64,000 nt of DNA, from NCBI GenBank assembly GCA_028030915.1, contig GCA_028030915.1_4867.1; one strand, 5' to 3'. Source of the stretch: a phage. Every line of letters starts with the position of its first letter. Position 1 is the stretch's first letter. The position numbers and the translations under genes were made by a program. The notes beneath the pieces are model-generated. The model ran no database searches and was not told the origin of the DNA. It saw only the letters and a program-made list of their open reading frames with translations. This document shows, in pieces, positions 3,791 through 45,667 of this stretch.

Positions 3791-4519
3791 TTACCTCATA
3801 TACAAATCCTCGAGTGGCTCTGCACGTACCGGATCGACCTGGAGTGCAGAACGGATACCCTGTTTCAGTTCCACATCTGCAATCTTGGCCAACCGGGAAG
3901 TTTTGTTCAATGAACCTGAACGCAGCGGAATAAACTGCACCCGATTCATCAAATCGCTGTCTTTTTTCAGGGTGTAGCGGAAATACGTCCGCGGGTCGCC
4001 AACCTTACGCTGTGTGTGGGCAGCATAACAGTCAGCGGTGATCTGGTCGTTAAAGACCGTAAAGCCGTTCCACGTCTTAGTGTCAGACAATAGCTCAGCG
4101 TCATCTACTGCGGTGTACCAGAAAGGCCGGTTTCCGAAGTCGTAGATGTACGAAGCGATGTTGTAGACTGGCGAGGATAGCACTTGCAGCATTCGGTTGG
4201 GGAACACCACCGTGCCGGGGTCAAAACGGAACTCGTAATACGGCACACCCTGAACGTCAATTTCCTCAAACGCCGACGGGGTAATTTCAATGAACGTCGT
4301 GACGTTCGATACCCCGTAGGTTTTGCGGTCAGTGGAGATAGCGAAAATACCGACGATTTCTACTTGCGAAGAAATTACCGCCAGCTCTTTAGCCACGAAG
4401 CCAACAGGGATGTAAATGTAACATCCCCCTTTGGTGATGGTGGCCGTGCCTTGGTCCACTAAATCTGCATGAATTTTCGTCGCGTCACGACGTGCTGTTT
4501 CAATGGCGCTCACGACCAC
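3791..4519 (-). CDS. hypothetical protein (242 aa)
   Basis: ORF track; long ORF. Confidence 0.6.
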   Translation of the reverse strand: MVVSAIETARRDATKIHADLVDQGTATITKGGCYIYIPVGFVAKELAVISSQVEIVGIFAISTDRKTYGVSNVTTFIEITPSAFEEIDVQGVPYYEFRFDPGTVVFPNRMLQVLSSPVYNIASYIYDFGNRPFWYTAVDDAELLSDTKTWNGFTVFNDQITADCYAAHTQRKVGDPRTYFRYTLKKDSDLMNRVQFIPLRSGSLNKTSRLAKIADVELKQGIRSALQVDPVRAEPLEDLYMR

Positions 4520-4528
4520 CTCTCTTTA

Positions 4529-6004
4529 TTAAACTTTGCTCGGTACAGAAATAACCACACCGCCACAAATCCAATCCAGGACGTAGTTAATCATCCAGTC
4601 GGTTGCCACCTCGTCAGGTTGACGGTTAGCAATCATACCACGATGAATATCCAGCATCAGCTTGGACAGTTCGTATTCGCCGAAGACCTCAGTCGCGGAG
4701 ACTTTGATAACGAACTCAGTGATGTCTGTGGTGTCGGTTGTGAAGAACGAATCGATGAAGCTTGCCGTTGATTTCTTAACGAACTCCGGCGTTGCTACCT
4801 GACCGTCCTGTCCACGCCAGAACAGTTCAGGATCGGTTGCATCGATGGCCACGTTAAACGCTTGTTTCAGTGACTGGCGATTGCGTGTTACCCAACTGCT
4901 GTCGAGCTTAGCACGCTGAATCGCAGAACGGTGTCCCCAGGCAGCGATGTAGTCTTTCTGTTTTTCCAACAGTGAAGCTACACGCGTGGAGACATTGGTG
5001 TCACCTTCGTCCAGCTGGTAGATAGCGCCCAGCAACGCTTCAACGCTACCGCCTTTTTCCAGATAGTCGTCCATCACTTCCTGACAGATATACACTTTCT
5101 TCTCAACGTTGTCGTATCCGAAGACAATGTTACCGGTCTTGATGCGGGTAACGATGTTCTGGGTGTAGGCGTAAACCCAACCGATATAGCTGTAATGCAA
5201 CGGCAGCATCTGTGCTTTCCACTGCCCGCTATTCAGACCAGAGTCTTTCCACGGCATTTCCAGGTAGTAGCCAGAAAGCAGCATAAACAGAATGTTGCGT
5301 TTCAGGTTGTGCGGTGCCTGGTCGCTTACCGGAGAGAGCATGTTCCCTTCGAGCATGTTGCGAACGGCTTCGTTGATATTCCAACCCAGCGCATTCAACA
5401 GTTCTTTAACCAGATCGTCGTATGCTTTGCTGCCGGTTTCTGGCAGTTCGATATCGGCAGGGACGTTGGCTTTAACTGCAGGGTGCGTAGTACCATTGCC
5501 CAGCGGGTTTTCTACCGAATCAATTAATGCCTGTACCACCGGGGAGTTCAACGCCGGGTCCATACCTGCAGGCACAAGTGCCCATTCTTCGCTAACTGCC
5601 TGGTTTTCAATACCCTGGTTGTTTTGGATAACCAGTTGAACAAACGGCTGAATAACGTTACGGGCAAAGTCAAGCATACCCTGACAACGTTGGATAGCCA
5701 TACGTTTCAGTTCGAACAGTGTCGGTTCGTGGTCTTCGACGTTCAGCGTTTCTGGACCCGCTGCAGTATCTGCGATTACAGACGCTTCGCCTGTACCGGC
5801 CTGCGGCGTTTTCAGTGCAGTGATATCCGGCAGAGACTGGAAGAACTCTTCGTCAGTTATCTGCGTATCGAAAACGCTCTGCTGCGTAGTCGCTTTTGTC
5901 AGTAGACCAACAGGACTGTCAACGTCAGCTTCCAAACGAATCTGGTGTTGTTTCGCCAGTTTCATTGCGTTGGTGACAGCATTAAGTGAATATAAGTTGA
6001 TCAT
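4529..6004 (-). CDS. hypothetical protein (491 aa), possibly virion-associated
   Basis: ORF track; long ORF in operon with the large 1401-aa gene; no motif recognised. Confidence 0.65.
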   Translation of the reverse strand: MINLYSLNAVTNAMKLAKQHQIRLEADVDSPVGLLTKATTQQSVFDTQITDEEFFQSLPDITALKTPQAGTGEASVIADTAAGPETLNVEDHEPTLFELKRMAIQRCQGMLDFARNVIQPFVQLVIQNNQGIENQAVSEEWALVPAGMDPALNSPVVQALIDSVENPLGNGTTHPAVKANVPADIELPETGSKAYDDLVKELLNALGWNINEAVRNMLEGNMLSPVSDQAPHNLKRNILFMLLSGYYLEMPWKDSGLNSGQWKAQMLPLHYSYIGWVYAYTQNIVTRIKTGNIVFGYDNVEKKVYICQEVMDDYLEKGGSVEALLGAIYQLDEGDTNVSTRVASLLEKQKDYIAAWGHRSAIQRAKLDSSWVTRNRQSLKQAFNVAIDATDPELFWRGQDGQVATPEFVKKSTASFIDSFFTTDTTDITEFVIKVSATEVFGEYELSKLMLDIHRGMIANRQPDEVATDWMINYVLDWICGGVVISVPSKV

Positions 6005-39857: not shown

Positions 39858-39912
39858 AAAGTAAGCAGTACCCACTCCCCCTACGGGAGTGGGTAGGCTT
39901 TATTTTATTTCG
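39849..39912. terminator. bidirectional intrinsic terminator
   Basis: aaaaaataaaaagtaagcag tacccactccc cctac gggagtgggta ggctttattttattt; between convergent genes. Confidence 0.65.
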
Positions 39913-39919
39913 GACCGAT

Positions 39920-40462
39920 TTAGAATTTACTAATAGCGAGTGGCTGCATTGGCTCAATCACAATCAGTATTTCTTTCAGACGTGAAACGATATGCTCCCA
40001 GACCTGTGCTTCGAGGTGACGTAGCATGGTGGTGAACTCACCCATGTACATCTCTTTATACTCGTCGCGGTTGAGATGTTCCCACGCTTCTTTCAATGGG
40101 CCTGCTTCCGGTCCAGACATCTTAATCATCATTTCGATGTCCTTCATTTCATCAAAGGCTTTACCGACCTTATCAATAACCTCATCGGTCTTGAGTTCGA
40201 GTGAGAAGCGACCCATCTTAGACTGCAGGAAGCCGTCTTCAATGTCTTCGTCGTTGTATTCGAAACACGCAATACGTTGCGCGAGTTGATGAACTTCATT
40301 TACCGCGATATTGACATACGCTGCAGAGATAAGCCCAGCGAGGTGTTGACGATCGATATTCTTCGGTATCAGATAGTCTTCACACTTACGCTTAAACTCG
40401 AACAACGCCGCTGGAAATATTTCACGAAATTCGTCATCGAGTAAATCAATGAATATTTTCAT
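39920..40462 (-). CDS. hypothetical protein (180 aa)
   Basis: ORF track. Confidence 0.55.
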   Translation of the reverse strand: MKIFIDLLDDEFREIFPAALFEFKRKCEDYLIPKNIDRQHLAGLISAAYVNIAVNEVHQLAQRIACFEYNDEDIEDGFLQSKMGRFSLELKTDEVIDKVGKAFDEMKDIEMMIKMSGPEAGPLKEAWEHLNRDEYKEMYMGEFTTMLRHLEAQVWEHIVSRLKEILIVIEPMQPLAISKF

Positions 40463-40998
40463 TCAATAGGTTTCCCGTATTTCTCACCGAGGTATAACAA
40501 CTCACGGCGACAGATAGCCAGCACTTTCATTTCTGCTTCACGATACAATTTGGTGATTTTGTCAATGATTGGCTGGTCAACGATATCGGACCATGTTACC
40601 GTGTCCGTAACGTTCGACGTTTGCCCGTTAATGACCACAGCAACATATGTCTCGCCCAGGTTCTCTTGATGTAACCCCGCCAGAGATTCACCAACCTTAT
40701 CAAAGGCTTCACTCAATAAGTCGGTGATTTGGTCCGTCCCTTCTACCAGTTCAAAACGATGGGGATAGTTCAGAATGTTACGCAGCCGCGTGAACATACG
40801 TTCAATAAGCTGATTTACCATATCCCCAGTGTCACAGATAGCCACATCTACGCCTGAACCCATTTCGTCAGACAAACGATTTTCATGGACGGCCAACGCA
40901 TCGTGAAGTTCAAATTCCACGTCTCGTTTTAATCCTAACAGAATTTCATCTAGCTGACGTCTCGACTCCGACAGAGCGAAGTCAATTACGATTTGCAT
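40459..40998 (-). CDS. hypothetical protein (179 aa)
   Basis: ORF track; 4-nt overlap with downstream gene. Confidence 0.55.
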   Translation of the reverse strand: MQIVIDFALSESRRQLDEILLGLKRDVEFELHDALAVHENRLSDEMGSGVDVAICDTGDMVNQLIERMFTRLRNILNYPHRFELVEGTDQITDLLSEAFDKVGESLAGLHQENLGETYVAVVINGQTSNVTDTVTWSDIVDQPIIDKITKLYREAEMKVLAICRRELLYLGEKYGKPIE

Positions 40999-41008
40999 CT
41001 AATGCTCC

Positions 41009-41482
41009 TTAAAAGTTACTTACCTCGGGCTGCGTATACCAGTATCTGCACGCTACGAGATCCACAACGTTATATTTCAGTTGTCCACCGTGCTGTGACG
41101 TGTCTGCCAATTCATGCGCAAGCTTGTACGCCAAGTCTTCACGGTTGTCGAGGATAAGCAACACAACACGCTGCACCTCATTAAAGATATCCGGTTCACG
41201 TAAACAACTGTAGCGCTCGCTAAGATGCTTAATAACGCCTTTATAAACATCTCCTGGTACAGCAGTGCCATTTTCTGCTACGTGGAATGAAACAAGCACG
41301 ATTTTAATTAAAATCTCGACAACCATGGAGTATATCATTCCACGGTTGCCGTTAATTTCCACATGCTTTAGATACTCTTGCAAGTCCATCAATGACTCGC
41401 TATACACCTTTAACATAGCGACCACCTCTAGTTGGTTGCCGGCCACACCCCTGGCGATGGGATTGCATCGTATCCACGCCAT
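41009..41482 (-). CDS. hypothetical protein (157 aa)
   Basis: ORF track. Confidence 0.5.
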   Translation of the reverse strand: MAWIRCNPIARGVAGNQLEVVAMLKVYSESLMDLQEYLKHVEINGNRGMIYSMVVEILIKIVLVSFHVAENGTAVPGDVYKGVIKHLSERYSCLREPDIFNEVQRVVLLILDNREDLAYKLAHELADTSQHGGQLKYNVVDLVACRYWYTQPEVSNF

Positions 41483-41805
41483 TTCTTAATCACGACAAGG
41501 TTCGAGCCTGGAAGACCATCTAAATCAAAACCAACAGTAGCAACGACATCAACTTCAGCATCCAGCGATACCTGATCGCGACCCTGTGTTCTGAAATGCG
41601 CAAGAGACACCAGTTTACCGCCAGTAATCGCAGTATCGCGAATAAGACGTGCCATATTGCGCATCTCTACTGTCACTTCTCCACGAATAGCGACACTCAG
41701 CGTTGCTTTATTTAACCAGGCTTCTTGTCCCGGTTCGACAATATAGAGAATCACACCTTCTTTGTAATACTGTTTTACCATCGTTTCAAATTCGTCTTGC
41801 GTCAT
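41428..41805 (-). CDS. hypothetical protein (125 aa)
   Basis: ORF track. Confidence 0.5.
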   Translation of the reverse strand: MTQDEFETMVKQYYKEGVILYIVEPGQEAWLNKATLSVAIRGEVTVEMRNMARLIRDTAITGGKLVSLAHFRTQGRDQVSLDAEVDVVATVGFDLDGLPGSNLVVIKKWRGYDAIPSPGVWPATN

Positions 41806-41818
41806 TTTAAATACTCCT

Positions 41819-42553
41819 TCAGTAGTTTATTTTCTCAGCGACTTCTTTACGGATGCGACACATCACCACCATCGCACCATTCGGAATTTGGCTCACGCAG
41901 TTATCCGTGTAAAACTTACCTTCACACAGATAAAAGTCCAGACACATGGCATCGGTCAGCTCGTGCCACAGGGTGCCGAAACCATACTGCCAAGGGCCGG
42001 AATGAACGACATCGTAATCGCCATCAGTTATGCCAAATGCGGCAGTAGCGGAAGACCACAGTATTGAGGAAGTGGTATAAGTGTCATACCAGTAACCGAG
42101 CAGACGATGGTTACGACGTATCTCAGCTAACCGCTCGTACATTGGGATGAATACATCTTCCACCTGCGTGACAAAATCAGCCAGCATCAACTTTTCCGTG
42201 AACCACTCGATCCACGCAAAGATTTGTTCTTCAACGTCTTGTTGGCTTAACCCCGTGGCAGTAATGCCTTCTTCGTAGGTGTAACCTTCGTAGACGTCAA
42301 CAACATTAATCTCTACATGTTCTAGCGTGAACAACCGTTCGGTGTTGATGCAGTCGTACATCTCTTGTAACCACGCAGTGAAGACTTCTATACAGACGTT
42401 GATGGCTGTGTACTTGAATTCATCGCGCAGTGGATACCACTGTGGGTTATCCTTTAGTTCGTTCTTCGCGAACGCGGGCCAATGCTTTTCGAACAACGCT
42501 TCAAAGAACTGGGGCGTGAGGTTTAAAAGCACTGGCACTTCGACTTTAAGCAT
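41819..42553 (-). CDS. hypothetical protein (244 aa)
   Basis: ORF track; SD aaggag; conserved motif 42586-42607 upstream. Confidence 0.55.
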   Translation of the reverse strand: MLKVEVPVLLNLTPQFFEALFEKHWPAFAKNELKDNPQWYPLRDEFKYTAINVCIEVFTAWLQEMYDCINTERLFTLEHVEINVVDVYEGYTYEEGITATGLSQQDVEEQIFAWIEWFTEKLMLADFVTQVEDVFIPMYERLAEIRRNHRLLGYWYDTYTTSSILWSSATAAFGITDGDYDVVHSGPWQYGFGTLWHELTDAMCLDFYLCEGKFYTDNCVSQIPNGAMVVMCRIRKEVAEKINY

Positions 42554-42585
42554 CGTGAATAAATTCTCCTTAAGGTTACGTCCCT

Positions 42586-42607
42586 GTAGATAATATCTAT
42601 CTCAGAT
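42586..42607 (-). promoter_or_regulatory. conserved intergenic motif A, copy 3
   Basis: tgtagataatatctatctcaga; about 35 nt upstream of start 42553, followed by SD aaggag. Confidence 0.35.
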
Positions 42608-43407
42608 TACTTTAAGAGATGCAAGAAGCGTGCTGCCTGTTCTGTAAAGTGAAAATACTCGATGGTATCAGGTTCGTCCGAGTGAATGTCATCCGGGTCC
42701 AGCAGGTAGCCCGAGATATCATCCGTTAAAACCCAAGCGTCTCCCTGCAGGAAAATACCCATCGGTTTTTCTACCACGGGCATCACCAAGTCGGAATAAG
42801 AGTTACCTTCTGCAACCTTTACAATGTCTTCACACGGGTCAACAATATACAGGTTGCAGAGACTACGATCTTTAAGACTGCGATGAAACATCGCTCGATC
42901 GTACCAAATAACCTGAGAACAATTATCTTCGTCACCCGCCACATCGACCAACTCTGTCCAGAAACGATGTAAGAACCAGTTCAACGCACCGGTTATTAGC
43001 TCGTTCGGTTTCAGCATTCTAACGTGTTCGTCGTACAACTCTTCCATTGTCCAGATTCGACAATGCTCACGATCGATTGTCGGTAGCGGAGGTATTTGCG
43101 GCGGGACTTGTTTAGGCATCGGTTCATCACATCTTGCGTTGTAACGCGCAATTGTTTCGGTAACCAGCTCTGCCACAACATCACAAGCCGCTTCAAATCC
43201 CCACTTGTACAACACGTCGTAATCTTCCATGGGCGCAGCACCAAACTCACGGTTCGTTGCCATCCACGACATCCATCCGTATTGCTCCACACAGTTAATC
43301 AGACTTTGTGTGTGGAGCGTGAGCGATTCACTCACGACTCGCAACATGTTACACCTCTTCTTCTCGCAGTATGCGACGGTTTGCGTAATACGCACACCAC
43401 AACCCAT
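42607..43407 (-). CDS. hypothetical protein (266 aa)
   Basis: ORF track. Confidence 0.55.
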   Translation of the reverse strand: MGCGVRITQTVAYCEKKRCNMLRVVSESLTLHTQSLINCVEQYGWMSWMATNREFGAAPMEDYDVLYKWGFEAACDVVAELVTETIARYNARCDEPMPKQVPPQIPPLPTIDREHCRIWTMEELYDEHVRMLKPNELITGALNWFLHRFWTELVDVAGDEDNCSQVIWYDRAMFHRSLKDRSLCNLYIVDPCEDIVKVAEGNSYSDLVMPVVEKPMGIFLQGDAWVLTDDISGYLLDPDDIHSDEPDTIEYFHFTEQAARFLHLLK

Positions 43408-44863
43408 GATACTCTTTACCGATATAGATTAAGAAGTAACGGATGTAGTATTTTTCAGGACGACACACCGCGATGTAATAACGGCCTTCGGGTTCTTTAA
43501 TACGGTTGATTTCCGTACGCGATGGAATATCGATACCACGCGTCAAAATAACCGAGACAGGTCGTTTACCCATCGGAAAGTCAATCTTTAACGTTATTGA
43601 CTTATCGACGCTACGGTAGTATTCCTTAACAGGCTTACCTTTGTCATCGAACAACAAGTCAGTAATATCATTTAAGACATAACCCTTTTCCTGATGCAGA
43701 ACATCTCTCAACGTTGTAGCGAGTTCGTCACGAATATCCAGCGCACGGTACGACAATAAGGGCGGGCGAAGCATTCTGGAGATGGCCAGGTCTTCAAAGA
43801 ACCAGACATTGGAATCTTCTCCACTGAAATGCATCTTGTCTGCCGGTAATCCATCACCTGCCACGTCAACGAACTTCTTACGTTTAACGAACTCATTGTT
43901 AACAACACCGATTGGATCATACTGCCGCATCTTCGGTGTATCTTTCCATGCCAGGGCGGCGTGGTTGTTTACAATCGTGTAGATGTTATCCCACGGTTGT
44001 TTAGTGAACATTACGGAAAAGTGTGCATCAGGAATCATTTTCCCAATAAACACCAAGTCGTCCTTGTTCTTTGCATGGTTGCCACCAAACATGTAATAGA
44101 AAGTTTCATCTTTCACTTTTACAGTAGGATGGTCCTCGTTCACCAACGGATAGCAATATTTAACCGTACAAATCGGCGGATATGCCGCAAGGTTCATCCC
44201 AGCGGCGATGGGCTCGGGTTCCGCGGATGCAGGCAACTCATCCTTCGACCAGTACGGCTGATATGGAACGCCGTCGTTGGTCGCTGTGATGGCTGAACCT
44301 TTTCTAGCCAATTCGTCCGCCCGGTCGTTACCGTAGTGGCCGGAGTGTCCTTTGATTTTGATAACCTTAACACCCCGTCCTTCTTTTTTCATCTGCTGTT
44401 TGATTTCCCAGATACGAACAATAAGTTCTTTGTTCGCCAGCGGAGTACCGTCAGCACGAACCCAACCACGTTTATGCCAGCCGTCTATCCACTCGTTAAA
44501 AGTGTTTACAACGTAACTGGCATCCACGTAGATGATATAGTTCTTCGCGCGGAAGGGCGCGTTCTCAAACAACGTGATGAAGGCGATTAACTCGCCCACA
44601 TCTGAGTAGAACTCTTTCGGAACGGGAATAACGGCGTCGACAAATTGAACGGTGTCCGGCAACTCCGGACAATTCACATCCTGCGGCACTTTTTTGTATC
44701 CAACAGTGGTAATCCGTTCTGAAACACCCGGATGGCTATAAGCCTGACTGTCTTCCAAATCTCCGTTGTTGAATAAATAACCATGAATACCAGCCCCCGA
44801 ACCTTTCGGGGACTCAGTATGACTACCATCGGTATAAATAACCGCTACGTCGACGTCTTTCAT
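43349..44863 (-). CDS. RNase H-domain protein with about 310-aa C-terminal extension of unknown function
   Basis: 504 aa; N-terminal about 195 aa carry RNase HI signatures (IYTDGS, GAGIHGY, YVDASYV..F.EWIDGWHKRGW, KGHSGHYGNDRADELARKG); the remaining C-terminal part matches nothing I recognise. Confidence 0.75.
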   Translation of the reverse strand: MKDVDVAVIYTDGSHTESPKGSGAGIHGYLFNNGDLEDSQAYSHPGVSERITTVGYKKVPQDVNCPELPDTVQFVDAVIPVPKEFYSDVGELIAFITLFENAPFRAKNYIIYVDASYVVNTFNEWIDGWHKRGWVRADGTPLANKELIVRIWEIKQQMKKEGRGVKVIKIKGHSGHYGNDRADELARKGSAITATNDGVPYQPYWSKDELPASAEPEPIAAGMNLAAYPPICTVKYCYPLVNEDHPTVKVKDETFYYMFGGNHAKNKDDLVFIGKMIPDAHFSVMFTKQPWDNIYTIVNNHAALAWKDTPKMRQYDPIGVVNNEFVKRKKFVDVAGDGLPADKMHFSGEDSNVWFFEDLAISRMLRPPLLSYRALDIRDELATTLRDVLHQEKGYVLNDITDLLFDDKGKPVKEYYRSVDKSITLKIDFPMGKRPVSVILTRGIDIPSRTEINRIKEPEGRYYIAVCRPEKYYIRYFLIYIGKEYHGLWCAYYANRRILREEEV

Positions 44864-45582
44864 TATTCTCCTCGCAACTGCGGTGGAATGTATTCACCTG
44901 TGCACATTTCGCGGTGGGCTTCTAACATGCGTTCGAAGCCGTACGTACGCGCGACCAGGGCCAAATGATAGATGCGTGCCGTAGAATACGCTTCCTTCGC
45001 AGCATCAAAGCTAGCGTTATGCTCGTACGCTTCTTTGCCACGGGTCCAATGGTGCGCTTCTGCGTGCCAGTTCGGTTCCAGGCCAAACGCATATGCAATA
45101 CGTTCTGCAGTCCGGTCAGAGTCCAATATAGAAAACTTGCGGTACTTGCCCGGCGGGATATCGCACTGCGCGAATGCGTTCATCAGAATTGGAGCATCGA
45201 AATCGGGACCGCGCATGGTGATAACCATTTTCACGTTGCCCAGATCATCCAACCATTTTTTGGCCGCCCACAGTGCTTCTGGCAGTGGAGTGGTCCCAGA
45301 AAACGCTTCAATACGTGCTTTCTCGCTCGGTGCGTATTCGGGGTCGCCTTTACCTTCCCAATAACCGACCGTTTGTGGATCGATGTAGAAGATTTCTTTT
45401 GCTTTTGCATCATTGGGGTCGATTTTGTGGTAACATGAACCGATCATTTTCATTGTCGGAACATCGAATGCCACGTTTGCCAACGTTAAGATGTAGGCAT
45501 CTGGACGTAAAGCCAGGGTCTCTAAGTCCGTCCCAACAACAACGGTGGGCGTTAAAACAGGCAGAATTTTAGGATATGTCAT
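44863..45582 (-). CDS. DEDDh-type 3'-5' exonuclease (DnaQ-like)
   Basis: 239 aa; Exo I-like VVGTDLETLAL and Exo III-like HNASFDAAKEAY motifs; 1-nt overlap with RNase H gene start. Confidence 0.65.
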   Translation of the reverse strand: MTYPKILPVLTPTVVVGTDLETLALRPDAYILTLANVAFDVPTMKMIGSCYHKIDPNDAKAKEIFYIDPQTVGYWEGKGDPEYAPSEKARIEAFSGTTPLPEALWAAKKWLDDLGNVKMVITMRGPDFDAPILMNAFAQCDIPPGKYRKFSILDSDRTAERIAYAFGLEPNWHAEAHHWTRGKEAYEHNASFDAAKEAYSTARIYHLALVARTYGFERMLEAHREMCTGEYIPPQLRGE

Positions 45583-45628: not shown

Positions 45629-45667
45629 AAAAAAAGGAAATCCCCTCTTACCCGAAGGTAAGAGGGA
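45629..45667 (-). terminator. intrinsic terminator (UUCG loop)
   Basis: aaaaaaaggaaat cccctcttacc cgaa ggtaagaggg; after lipoprotein gene. Confidence 0.6.

Follow-up and report, generated by a model that had tools for sequence, protein, structure and literature searches.

The 504-amino-acid (aa) protein encoded at 43349-44863 on the minus strand of a 64,000-nucleotide (nt) stretch of phage DNA (the window; NCBI GenBank assembly GCA_028030915.1, contig GCA_028030915.1_4867.1) is almost certainly the full-length, syntenic ortholog, in the SPN3US lineage, of ΦKZ gp155 (Nlp2), which belongs to the core proteins of the jumbo phages that form a nucleus. An RNase HI domain is followed in this protein by a C-terminal domain of an unnamed family, for which a clamp-like alpha/beta fold is predicted, and the gene overlaps that of a 239-aa DEDDh 3'-5' exonuclease (44863-45582, minus strand). 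The longer gene corresponds to SPN3US gp207 (ACQ60_gp059; annotated as 'putative ribonuclease H') and the shorter to SPN3US gp206 (ACQ60_gp060; annotated as 'putative endodeoxyribonuclease' or '3'-5' exoribonuclease'), and these names are used throughout. The 3-kb region was 98-99.6% identical in DNA to some 30 SPN3US-type jumbo phages (Salmonella, E. coli, Proteus), and the window is that of an SPN3US-type Salmonella jumbo phage of Seoulvirus, which NCBI taxonomy places in the Chimalliviridae (nucleus-forming jumbo phages) with Phikzvirus, Petsuvirus, Gorgonvirinae, Goslarvirus and others.

Comparison of gp207 with ΦKZ gp155 by BLASTP gave E=7e-38 at 26% identity (residues 5-494 against 3-476), phrog_3265 matched gp207 end to end (residues 1-504, 3.7e-189), and gene order was shared with ΦKZ, gp207 being divergent from a homolog of the virion protein gp157 (E=8e-54) with a gp161 homolog beyond; the same arrangement was found in OBP, phiKT1028 and pVa-21. 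ΦKZ gp155 and ΦPA3 gp176 have the two-domain architecture, genomic neighbourhood, catalytic residues and family (phrog_3265) of gp207, but gp207 is only about 26% identical to ΦKZ gp155, is 22 residues longer with a longer RNase H insertion, and has a gene overlapping a preceding DEDDh exonuclease gene that ΦKZ lacks at this place. The first-pass annotation of the window had described two open reading frames (ORFs) overlapping by 1 nt, as was found (common base 44863), and had raised the possibility that the longer ORF was two genes or a frameshift artefact. This was ruled out, since the ORF is continuous and its homologs are full length, with proteins of the same architecture (480-550 aa) in more than 150 clusters at 50% identity.

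Functional data on the gp155 family all come from ΦKZ and ΦPA3. The ΦKZ protein (ΦKZ155) is located inside the phage nucleus, its import depends on Imp1/PicA, and selection with EcoRI-Nlp2 yielded imp1 mutations (bioRxiv 10.1101/2024.03.27.586873). After antisense knockdown of ΦKZ155 or ΦPA3 gp176, infection stops following initial nucleus formation and genome amplification is blocked; with ΦKZ155 knockdown, nucleus-dependent transcription and polymerase import are intact, and DNA amplification is specifically blocked (PMC12571901). ΦKZ155 is a bona fide RNase H in vitro, and the D102N substitution abolishes activity yet fully complements, so that the essential function was stated to be nuclease-independent, its mechanism being left unexplained; the authors suggest a sensory role in place of a catalytic one, ΦKZ155-GFP (green fluorescent protein fusion) forms a peripheral punctum, and host genome degradation was not observed with ΦKZ, the protein being inside the phage nucleus (PMC12571901). 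D102 of ΦKZ155 is equivalent to D114 of gp207. By transfer from ΦKZ and ΦPA3, we infer nuclear import, a role in genome amplification and independence of catalysis for gp207.

The gene family is already known, being annotated in dozens of deposited genomes and characterised for its ΦKZ ortholog in 2025, so the finding of gp207 is not itself a discovery; the SPN3US amber-mutant paper (Thomas 2016) contains nothing on gp206 or gp207. What is added here is a hypothesis for the unexplained C-terminal domain, together with natural catalytic-dead variants. The questions it touches are how gp155 licenses genome amplification without nuclease activity, and how ΦKZ-like phages, in which no sliding clamp or primase is recognisable, copy genomes of 200-300 kb; clamp-like structural relatives, taken with catalytic-dead lineages, give a specific and testable hypothesis for a domain of unknown function. 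Chimalliviruses withstand host defences that target DNA and are candidates for phage therapy, and an essential, family-specific replication factor would thus be a useful handle.

The two modules of gp207

The RNase HI domain (residues 1-197; 44273-44863, minus strand) was recognised by Pfam PF00075 (RNase_H, 7.7e-22, 78.4 bits against a gathering cut-off of 25.8) and by a profile search of the PDB, in which it matched E. coli and human RNase H1 at about 1e-24. An AlphaFold2 model of full-length gp207 was produced (predicted local distance difference test score, pLDDT, 88.5; predicted template modelling score, pTM, 0.56), and its RNase H part retrieved E. coli RNase HI, a Shewanella enzyme and human RNase H1 in Foldseek (E~1e-8, probability 1.0, target template modelling (TM) score 0.7-0.8). 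Residues D12, E91, D114, H173 and D183 are equivalent to the catalytic D10, E48, D70, H124 and D134 of E. coli RNase HI, in columns that are invariant in alignment A3 (the numbering of the E. coli sequence in the alignment agrees with the known active site). With this intact active site, the domain is, judged from its sequence, catalytically competent.

A conserved insertion of about 40 residues (about residues 32-72; 44648-44770, minus strand), visible as a gap in the alignment with E. coli RNase HI, separates strands 2 and 3 of the model (residues 20-31 and 73-81); it holds G55-Y56, conserved family-wide, and is immediately preceded by H27 and Y29. The NCBIfam RnhA equivalog NF001236 scored 70.4 bits and did not reach its cut-off of 160, and by these comparisons the domain represents a diverged RNase HI particular to phages, outside the RnhA equivalog group. 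The description in the first-pass annotation of a canonical RNase HI of about 195 residues is therefore right as to the family (PF00075, all five catalytic residues) and too strong in calling it canonical, given the insertion and the score below the RnhA cut-off. Cellular RNase HI (E. coli RnhA, human RNase H1) has the same fold, D-E-D-D plus His site and basic-protrusion region (W-x-K-R-G-W...ADG.P), but lacks the insertion between strands 2 and 3 and the C-terminal extension of about 300 residues, and the essential role of the ΦKZ ortholog, by contrast, is non-catalytic.

All five catalytic residues are kept in 95 of the 102 diverse homologs aligned, and the other seven deviate, most at several positions. 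The orthologs in Pseudomonas phage OBP (OBP_261, 457 aa, L005:3359-4732) and Vibrio phage phiKT1028 (510 aa, L006:3203-4735) occupy the same syntenic position and gave no Pfam RNase_H match; in a small alignment the equivalents of D10, D70, H124 and D134 are missing from both, which retain the C-terminal domain and, despite the lost catalytic residues, the GxHGY and GY motifs. Profile alignment placed OBP_261 in the family (probability 97.3%, E=2e-11), with a match that begins only at family residue 136 and has T in place of D183. These natural catalytic-dead lineages with a C-terminal domain agree with the ΦKZ genetics, in which function is independent of catalysis. Since the active site is kept in most lineages, catalysis is useful, and the C-terminal domain is the part present throughout the family as aligned.

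The sole real fusion variant of the family is the metagenomic protein P0066 (585 aa), in which an extra N-terminal Macro domain (PF01661, 8e-11) precedes a deviant RNase H (catalytic string '-ETHE') and the C-terminal domain; in SPN3US and pVa-21, macro-domain proteins have genes of their own a few kb away. ΦKZ gp199 (143 aa, L011:11064-11495), annotated 'Rnase H', was considered as a redundant second RNase H behind the dispensable catalysis and is unsupported in that role, as it has no Pfam RNase_H match and reads as a minimal DEDDh exonuclease, with motifs FVDTEF, NHVND and HNALFD seen by eye. Homologs of gp199 occur in Pseudomonas, Caulobacter and Ralstonia phages, whereas SPN3US-type phages have none, a distribution that is the reverse of that of the gp206-type exonuclease, and a profile comparison of gp199 with gp206 was not significant, only the ExoIII motif being aligned.

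Between the RNase HI domain and the C-terminal domain (about residues 236-504; 43352-44158, minus strand) lies a linker (about residues 198-235; 44159-44272, minus strand) of variable length and sequence, which is gap-rich in alignment A1 and in which pLDDT drops to about 51 around residues 207-216. When the C-terminal domain was modelled alone (residues 201-504), pLDDT was 89.3 and pTM 0.86, against a pTM of 0.56 for the full-length protein, and this difference, with the low-confidence linker, suggests two modules joined flexibly in the predicted structure.

The C-terminal domain is as well conserved as the nuclease domain, with the motifs GNHAKNKDD, RKKF, RPPLLSYR, NDITDLL and GIDIPxRTxxNRIKEP in close relatives, and with G274-K275, D279, P367, D399-I-T401, D445-x-P447-x-R449, Y476 and W489 conserved among 102 members at about 20-25% identity. 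It is not basic (median isoelectric point 6.1, in a charge analysis for a DNA-binding domain). A phmmer search with the domain alone, exhaustive over 1.84 billion representatives, returned 152 proteins, nearly all of 480-550 aa with the domain at the C terminus. Short matches that could have been stand-alone copies were rejected as truncated genes (P0129 on a 902-bp contig; P0090 and P0109, which start inside the RNase H domain), and a 2050-aa match was a CARDB-repeat false positive. No match was obtained in Pfam, NCBIfam, PADLOC or PDB sequences (E<=10) with the single sequence, the full-family profile or a 30-member divergent profile, so the first-pass statement that some 310 C-terminal residues hold no recognisable motif was correct. 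Among the sequences searched, the domain is never alone in a complete gene and is without relatives outside the family.

The exonuclease gp206 and its junction with gp207

The 239-aa gp206 matched the Rv2179c-like exoribonuclease family of Pfam (PF16473) at 35.5 bits against a gathering score of 27 (E=1e-8), and phrog_255 at 4e-53. In alignment A7, D19, E21 and D129 are nearly invariant and H188 and D193 (H-x4-D) are invariant, and PF16473 is precomputed for nearly all intact gp206 homologs; the first-pass assignment of the upstream gene as a DnaQ-like, DEDDh 3'-5' exonuclease is borne out by this family match and these predicted catalytic residues. No PDB sequence match and no NCBIfam match was found for gp206. 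Compared with the Rv2179c-like exoribonucleases, whose gathering score it passes and whose DEDDh residues it keeps, gp206 belongs to a phage-specific subgroup confined to contigs of jumbo-phage size.

Homologs of gp206 were found in 81 phage records, none of them from a Pseudomonas phage. The records are those of SPN3US-type phages infecting Salmonella, E. coli and Proteus, of Cronobacter phages and many Erwinia phages, of pVa-21 from Vibrio, and of a few weak outliers. In all examined jumbo phages that have it, including Erwinia phages and pVa-21, the gp206-type gene lies directly upstream of the RNase H gene; the pVa-21 exonuclease is 33% identical to gp206 and is separated from the RNase H gene by a 166-nt gap in place of the overlap. 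ΦKZ has no exonuclease gene at the position upstream of gp155. As the exonuclease is restricted to one clade and absent from ΦKZ-type genomes, the gp206-gp207 pair is not the conserved unit, and gp206 is, on its observed distribution, a clade-specific accessory (SPN3US, Erwinia, Cronobacter, pVa-21). Gene order in these genomes is so stable that conserved adjacency gives only modest evidence for a functional link. The cytoplasmic 'exonuclease' RAY gp64 was considered as a proxy for the location of gp206 and was rejected, as it is not an ortholog.

At the junction (44861-44873, minus strand), read directly from the sequence, a GAGGAG Shine-Dalgarno-like motif precedes TAATG (coding strand ...GAGGAGAATAATGAAA...), in which the exonuclease stop codon TAA (44865-44863) and the RNase H start codon ATG (44863-44861) have base 44863 in common. 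This is a classic arrangement for translational coupling, and it suggests coupling of gp206 to gp207.

Readings of the role in genome amplification

The overall explanation that combines the orthology, a clamp-like mechanism for the C-terminal domain and an accessory exonuclease is considered the best available and is probably correct, with some reserve; within it the orthology is nearly certain, and the clamp-like mechanism is rated less likely than not. By analogy with ΦKZ, gp207 would be imported into the phage nucleus, where the C-terminal domain would supply an indispensable, non-catalytic function in genome amplification, as a clamp-fold (PCNA/9-1-1/UL42-like) module that binds DNA and/or the divergent family-B polymerase and so acts as a replisome tether or processivity factor. 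The fused RNase HI would clear RNA primers and RNA:DNA hybrids at the fork, and gp206, whose translation may be coupled to that of gp207, would probably trim 3' ends in the same pathway in the SPN3US clade. We infer both the clamp-like function and this role of the exonuclease; a clamp module would account both for a need for the protein that does not depend on catalysis and for the retention of the C-terminal domain in the lineages where the RNase H site decays. ΦKZ-like 'group 1' jumbo phages have no classical sliding clamp or recognisable primase and all have RNase H1, and ΦKZ-type polymerases are closest to poxvirus and nucleocytoplasmic large DNA virus (NCLDV) polymerases (Iyer et al. 2021, PMC7824862). 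The more specific proposal makes the C-terminal domain a sliding-clamp-fold module, highly diverged and fused to RNase HI, that would fill the place of the 'missing' processivity or tethering factor in the replisome of chimalliviruses. It is put forward tentatively from the predicted models, as a possibility that falls short of being probable.

Sliding clamps and processivity factors were the only fold family recovered for the predicted C-terminal domain by two structure-search methods. In one search, partial ATP-grasp matches of about 86 residues were scattered among the clamp-type matches; Foldseek, as the second method, likewise ranked Haloferax PCNA, 9-1-1 and Archaeoglobus PCNA at the top. 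Taking two domains of beta-alpha-beta-beta-beta type per protomer as the criterion for a clamp fold, the order of predicted secondary structure elements (three to four units of a helix plus three or four strands) fits, in our reading, about 1.5-2 clamp domains. Alignment of the two halves with hhalign on five splits gave probabilities below 1%, so that no internal repeat was detected; clamps rarely retain sequence repeats.

Several results weigh against this assignment and the account built on it. No Foldseek match of the C-terminal domain reached E<=1e-3 (best 1.9e-3, probability 0.57), with TM scores of 0.2-0.3; none of 30 divergent C-terminal domains matched a clamp family in Pfam (E<=10), and the C-terminal domain profile had no clamp match in the PDB; and the clamp similarity is one of predicted models with scores in the grey zone. 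Structure prediction for the C-terminal region, which the first-pass annotation had proposed as a check, thus gave a model that is weakly clamp-like in a region that matches no known domain by sequence. In addition, tblastn with single-sequence queries (ΦKZ and Goslar chimallin, ΦKZ and pVa-21 PicA) gave no match in SPN3US-type genomes, although a diverged chimallin (SPN3US gp244) and a square lattice have been attributed to SPN3US (Laughlin 2022, PMC9365700). No literature linking gp155 to a clamp or processivity role was found. Weighing these points, the clamp-like fold is a real but weak lead from modelling, with the chances of its being right about evenly balanced.

In the two structure searches, the predicted fold of the C-terminal domain resembles, at the weak scores given above, that of sliding clamps and clamp-fold factors (PCNA, 9-1-1, T4-type gp45, Pol III beta, herpesvirus UL42/UL44/PF-8). 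Archaeal and eukaryotic nucleases that remove primers are brought to the clamp, and herpesvirus factors show a clamp fold that can work without a ring or loader. With PCNA-tethered RNase HII and FEN1 (e.g. PDB 3p83, 1rxm) the nuclease is recruited to a clamp, whereas gp207 would fuse RNase H to a clamp-like module. In vaccinia, the uracil-DNA glycosylase D4 (part of the A20-D4 processivity factor) is essential to viral DNA synthesis in a structural capacity that does not require its catalytic activity; D4 and gp207 would be functionally analogous only, with unrelated folds and enzymes.

The main rival holds that the C-terminal domain is not a replisome clamp but a docking or licensing module for PicA/Imp1 or the nuclear shell, with the RNase H fold acting as a nucleic-acid sensor; its essential role would then be at the nuclear periphery, for example in handing the genome over from the early vesicle to the nascent nucleus or in gating the start of replication. 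The peripheral punctum of ΦKZ155-GFP and the sensory role proposed by its authors (PMC12571901) fit such a module, as do the imp1 mutations obtained with EcoRI-Nlp2 and the statistical weakness of the fold match to clamps. An import cargo, however, normally needs a surface patch only and not a domain of 270 residues with near-invariant, family-wide motifs, the knockdown spares nucleus-dependent transcription and polymerase import while specifically blocking DNA amplification, and the one fold family recovered by both structure-search methods is a DNA-replication fold, so that docking is thought rather unlikely.

A purely enzymatic pair, in which RNase H removes primers, the exonuclease proofreads or trims, catalysis is needed and the C-terminal region is passive, is rated less likely still, and is held to be improbable. 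Both active sites are intact in gp206 and gp207, all but seven of the 102 homologs retain the catalytic residues of RNase H, the two genes are neighbours throughout the SPN3US, Erwinia and pVa-21 clade, with a junction of coupled type in the window, and group 1 jumbo phages all have RNase H1; SPN3US-type genomes moreover have no homolog of ΦKZ gp199, so that their enzymatic needs may differ from those of ΦKZ. Against this, the D102N form of ΦKZ155 is inactive in vitro and complements fully, lineages with a degenerate RNase H retain the C-terminal domain, which is conserved as strongly as the catalytic one, and most of the family lacks the exonuclease. The first-pass reading of the two genes as a primer-removal or proofreading pair accordingly keeps its replication role and loses its simple enzymatic form. 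Its other suggestion, that the pair degrades host nucleic acids (for shutoff or nucleotide recycling), is very unlikely, for although both proteins are nucleases and host-shutoff nucleases are frequent in phages, the ΦKZ ortholog is kept apart from host DNA and RNA by its location inside the phage nucleus, degradation of the host genome was not seen, RNase HI acts on RNA:DNA hybrids only, and no PADLOC or defence-related matches were found.

Flanking sequences and genome context

A terminator-like hairpin (45642-45667, minus strand; 11-bp stem with 6 G-C pairs and a T-rich tail), found by consensus scan as a pattern match only, sits in the 89-nt gap 5' of the exonuclease gene. With this putative boundary upstream, the exonuclease and RNase H genes may start their own expression unit. 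A second strong terminator-like hairpin (39869-39895, plus strand; 11-bp stem) lies just past the 3' end of the minus-strand cluster ending at 39920, and terminator-like sites are over-represented between 39.5 and 47 kb (16 observed against 6.9 expected).

Six small or medium ORFs (39920-43407, minus strand) occupy the stretch from the RNase H gene to the next conserved block; in ΦKZ this place is taken by gp154 only. By BLASTP they showed no similarity to one another or to the ΦKZ locus, which marks them as a lineage-specific insertion; tandem paralogy among them was rejected on the same result.

The first-pass annotation had proposed looking for a polymerase gene nearby; no DNA polymerase gene is annotated in the SPN3US interval equivalent to the window. 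Elsewhere in the window, SPN3US_0244 (3791-4519, minus strand), the gene named as a highly diverged chimallin in PMC9365700, is an ORF of about 240 aa that matches a 'virion structural protein' PHROG, and the adjacent SPN3US_0243 (4529-6004, minus strand) is a 491-aa ORF of phrog_3841.

In the GenBank records of Salmonella phages SPFM1, 5-10, 12, 14 and 20, both gp206 and gp207 match only as 4-13 short pieces, which the annotation splits into several 'hypothetical proteins'. Since the genes are intact in sister SPFM genomes, at 99.6% identity, this looks like the product of frameshift-rich assemblies and not real gene decay.

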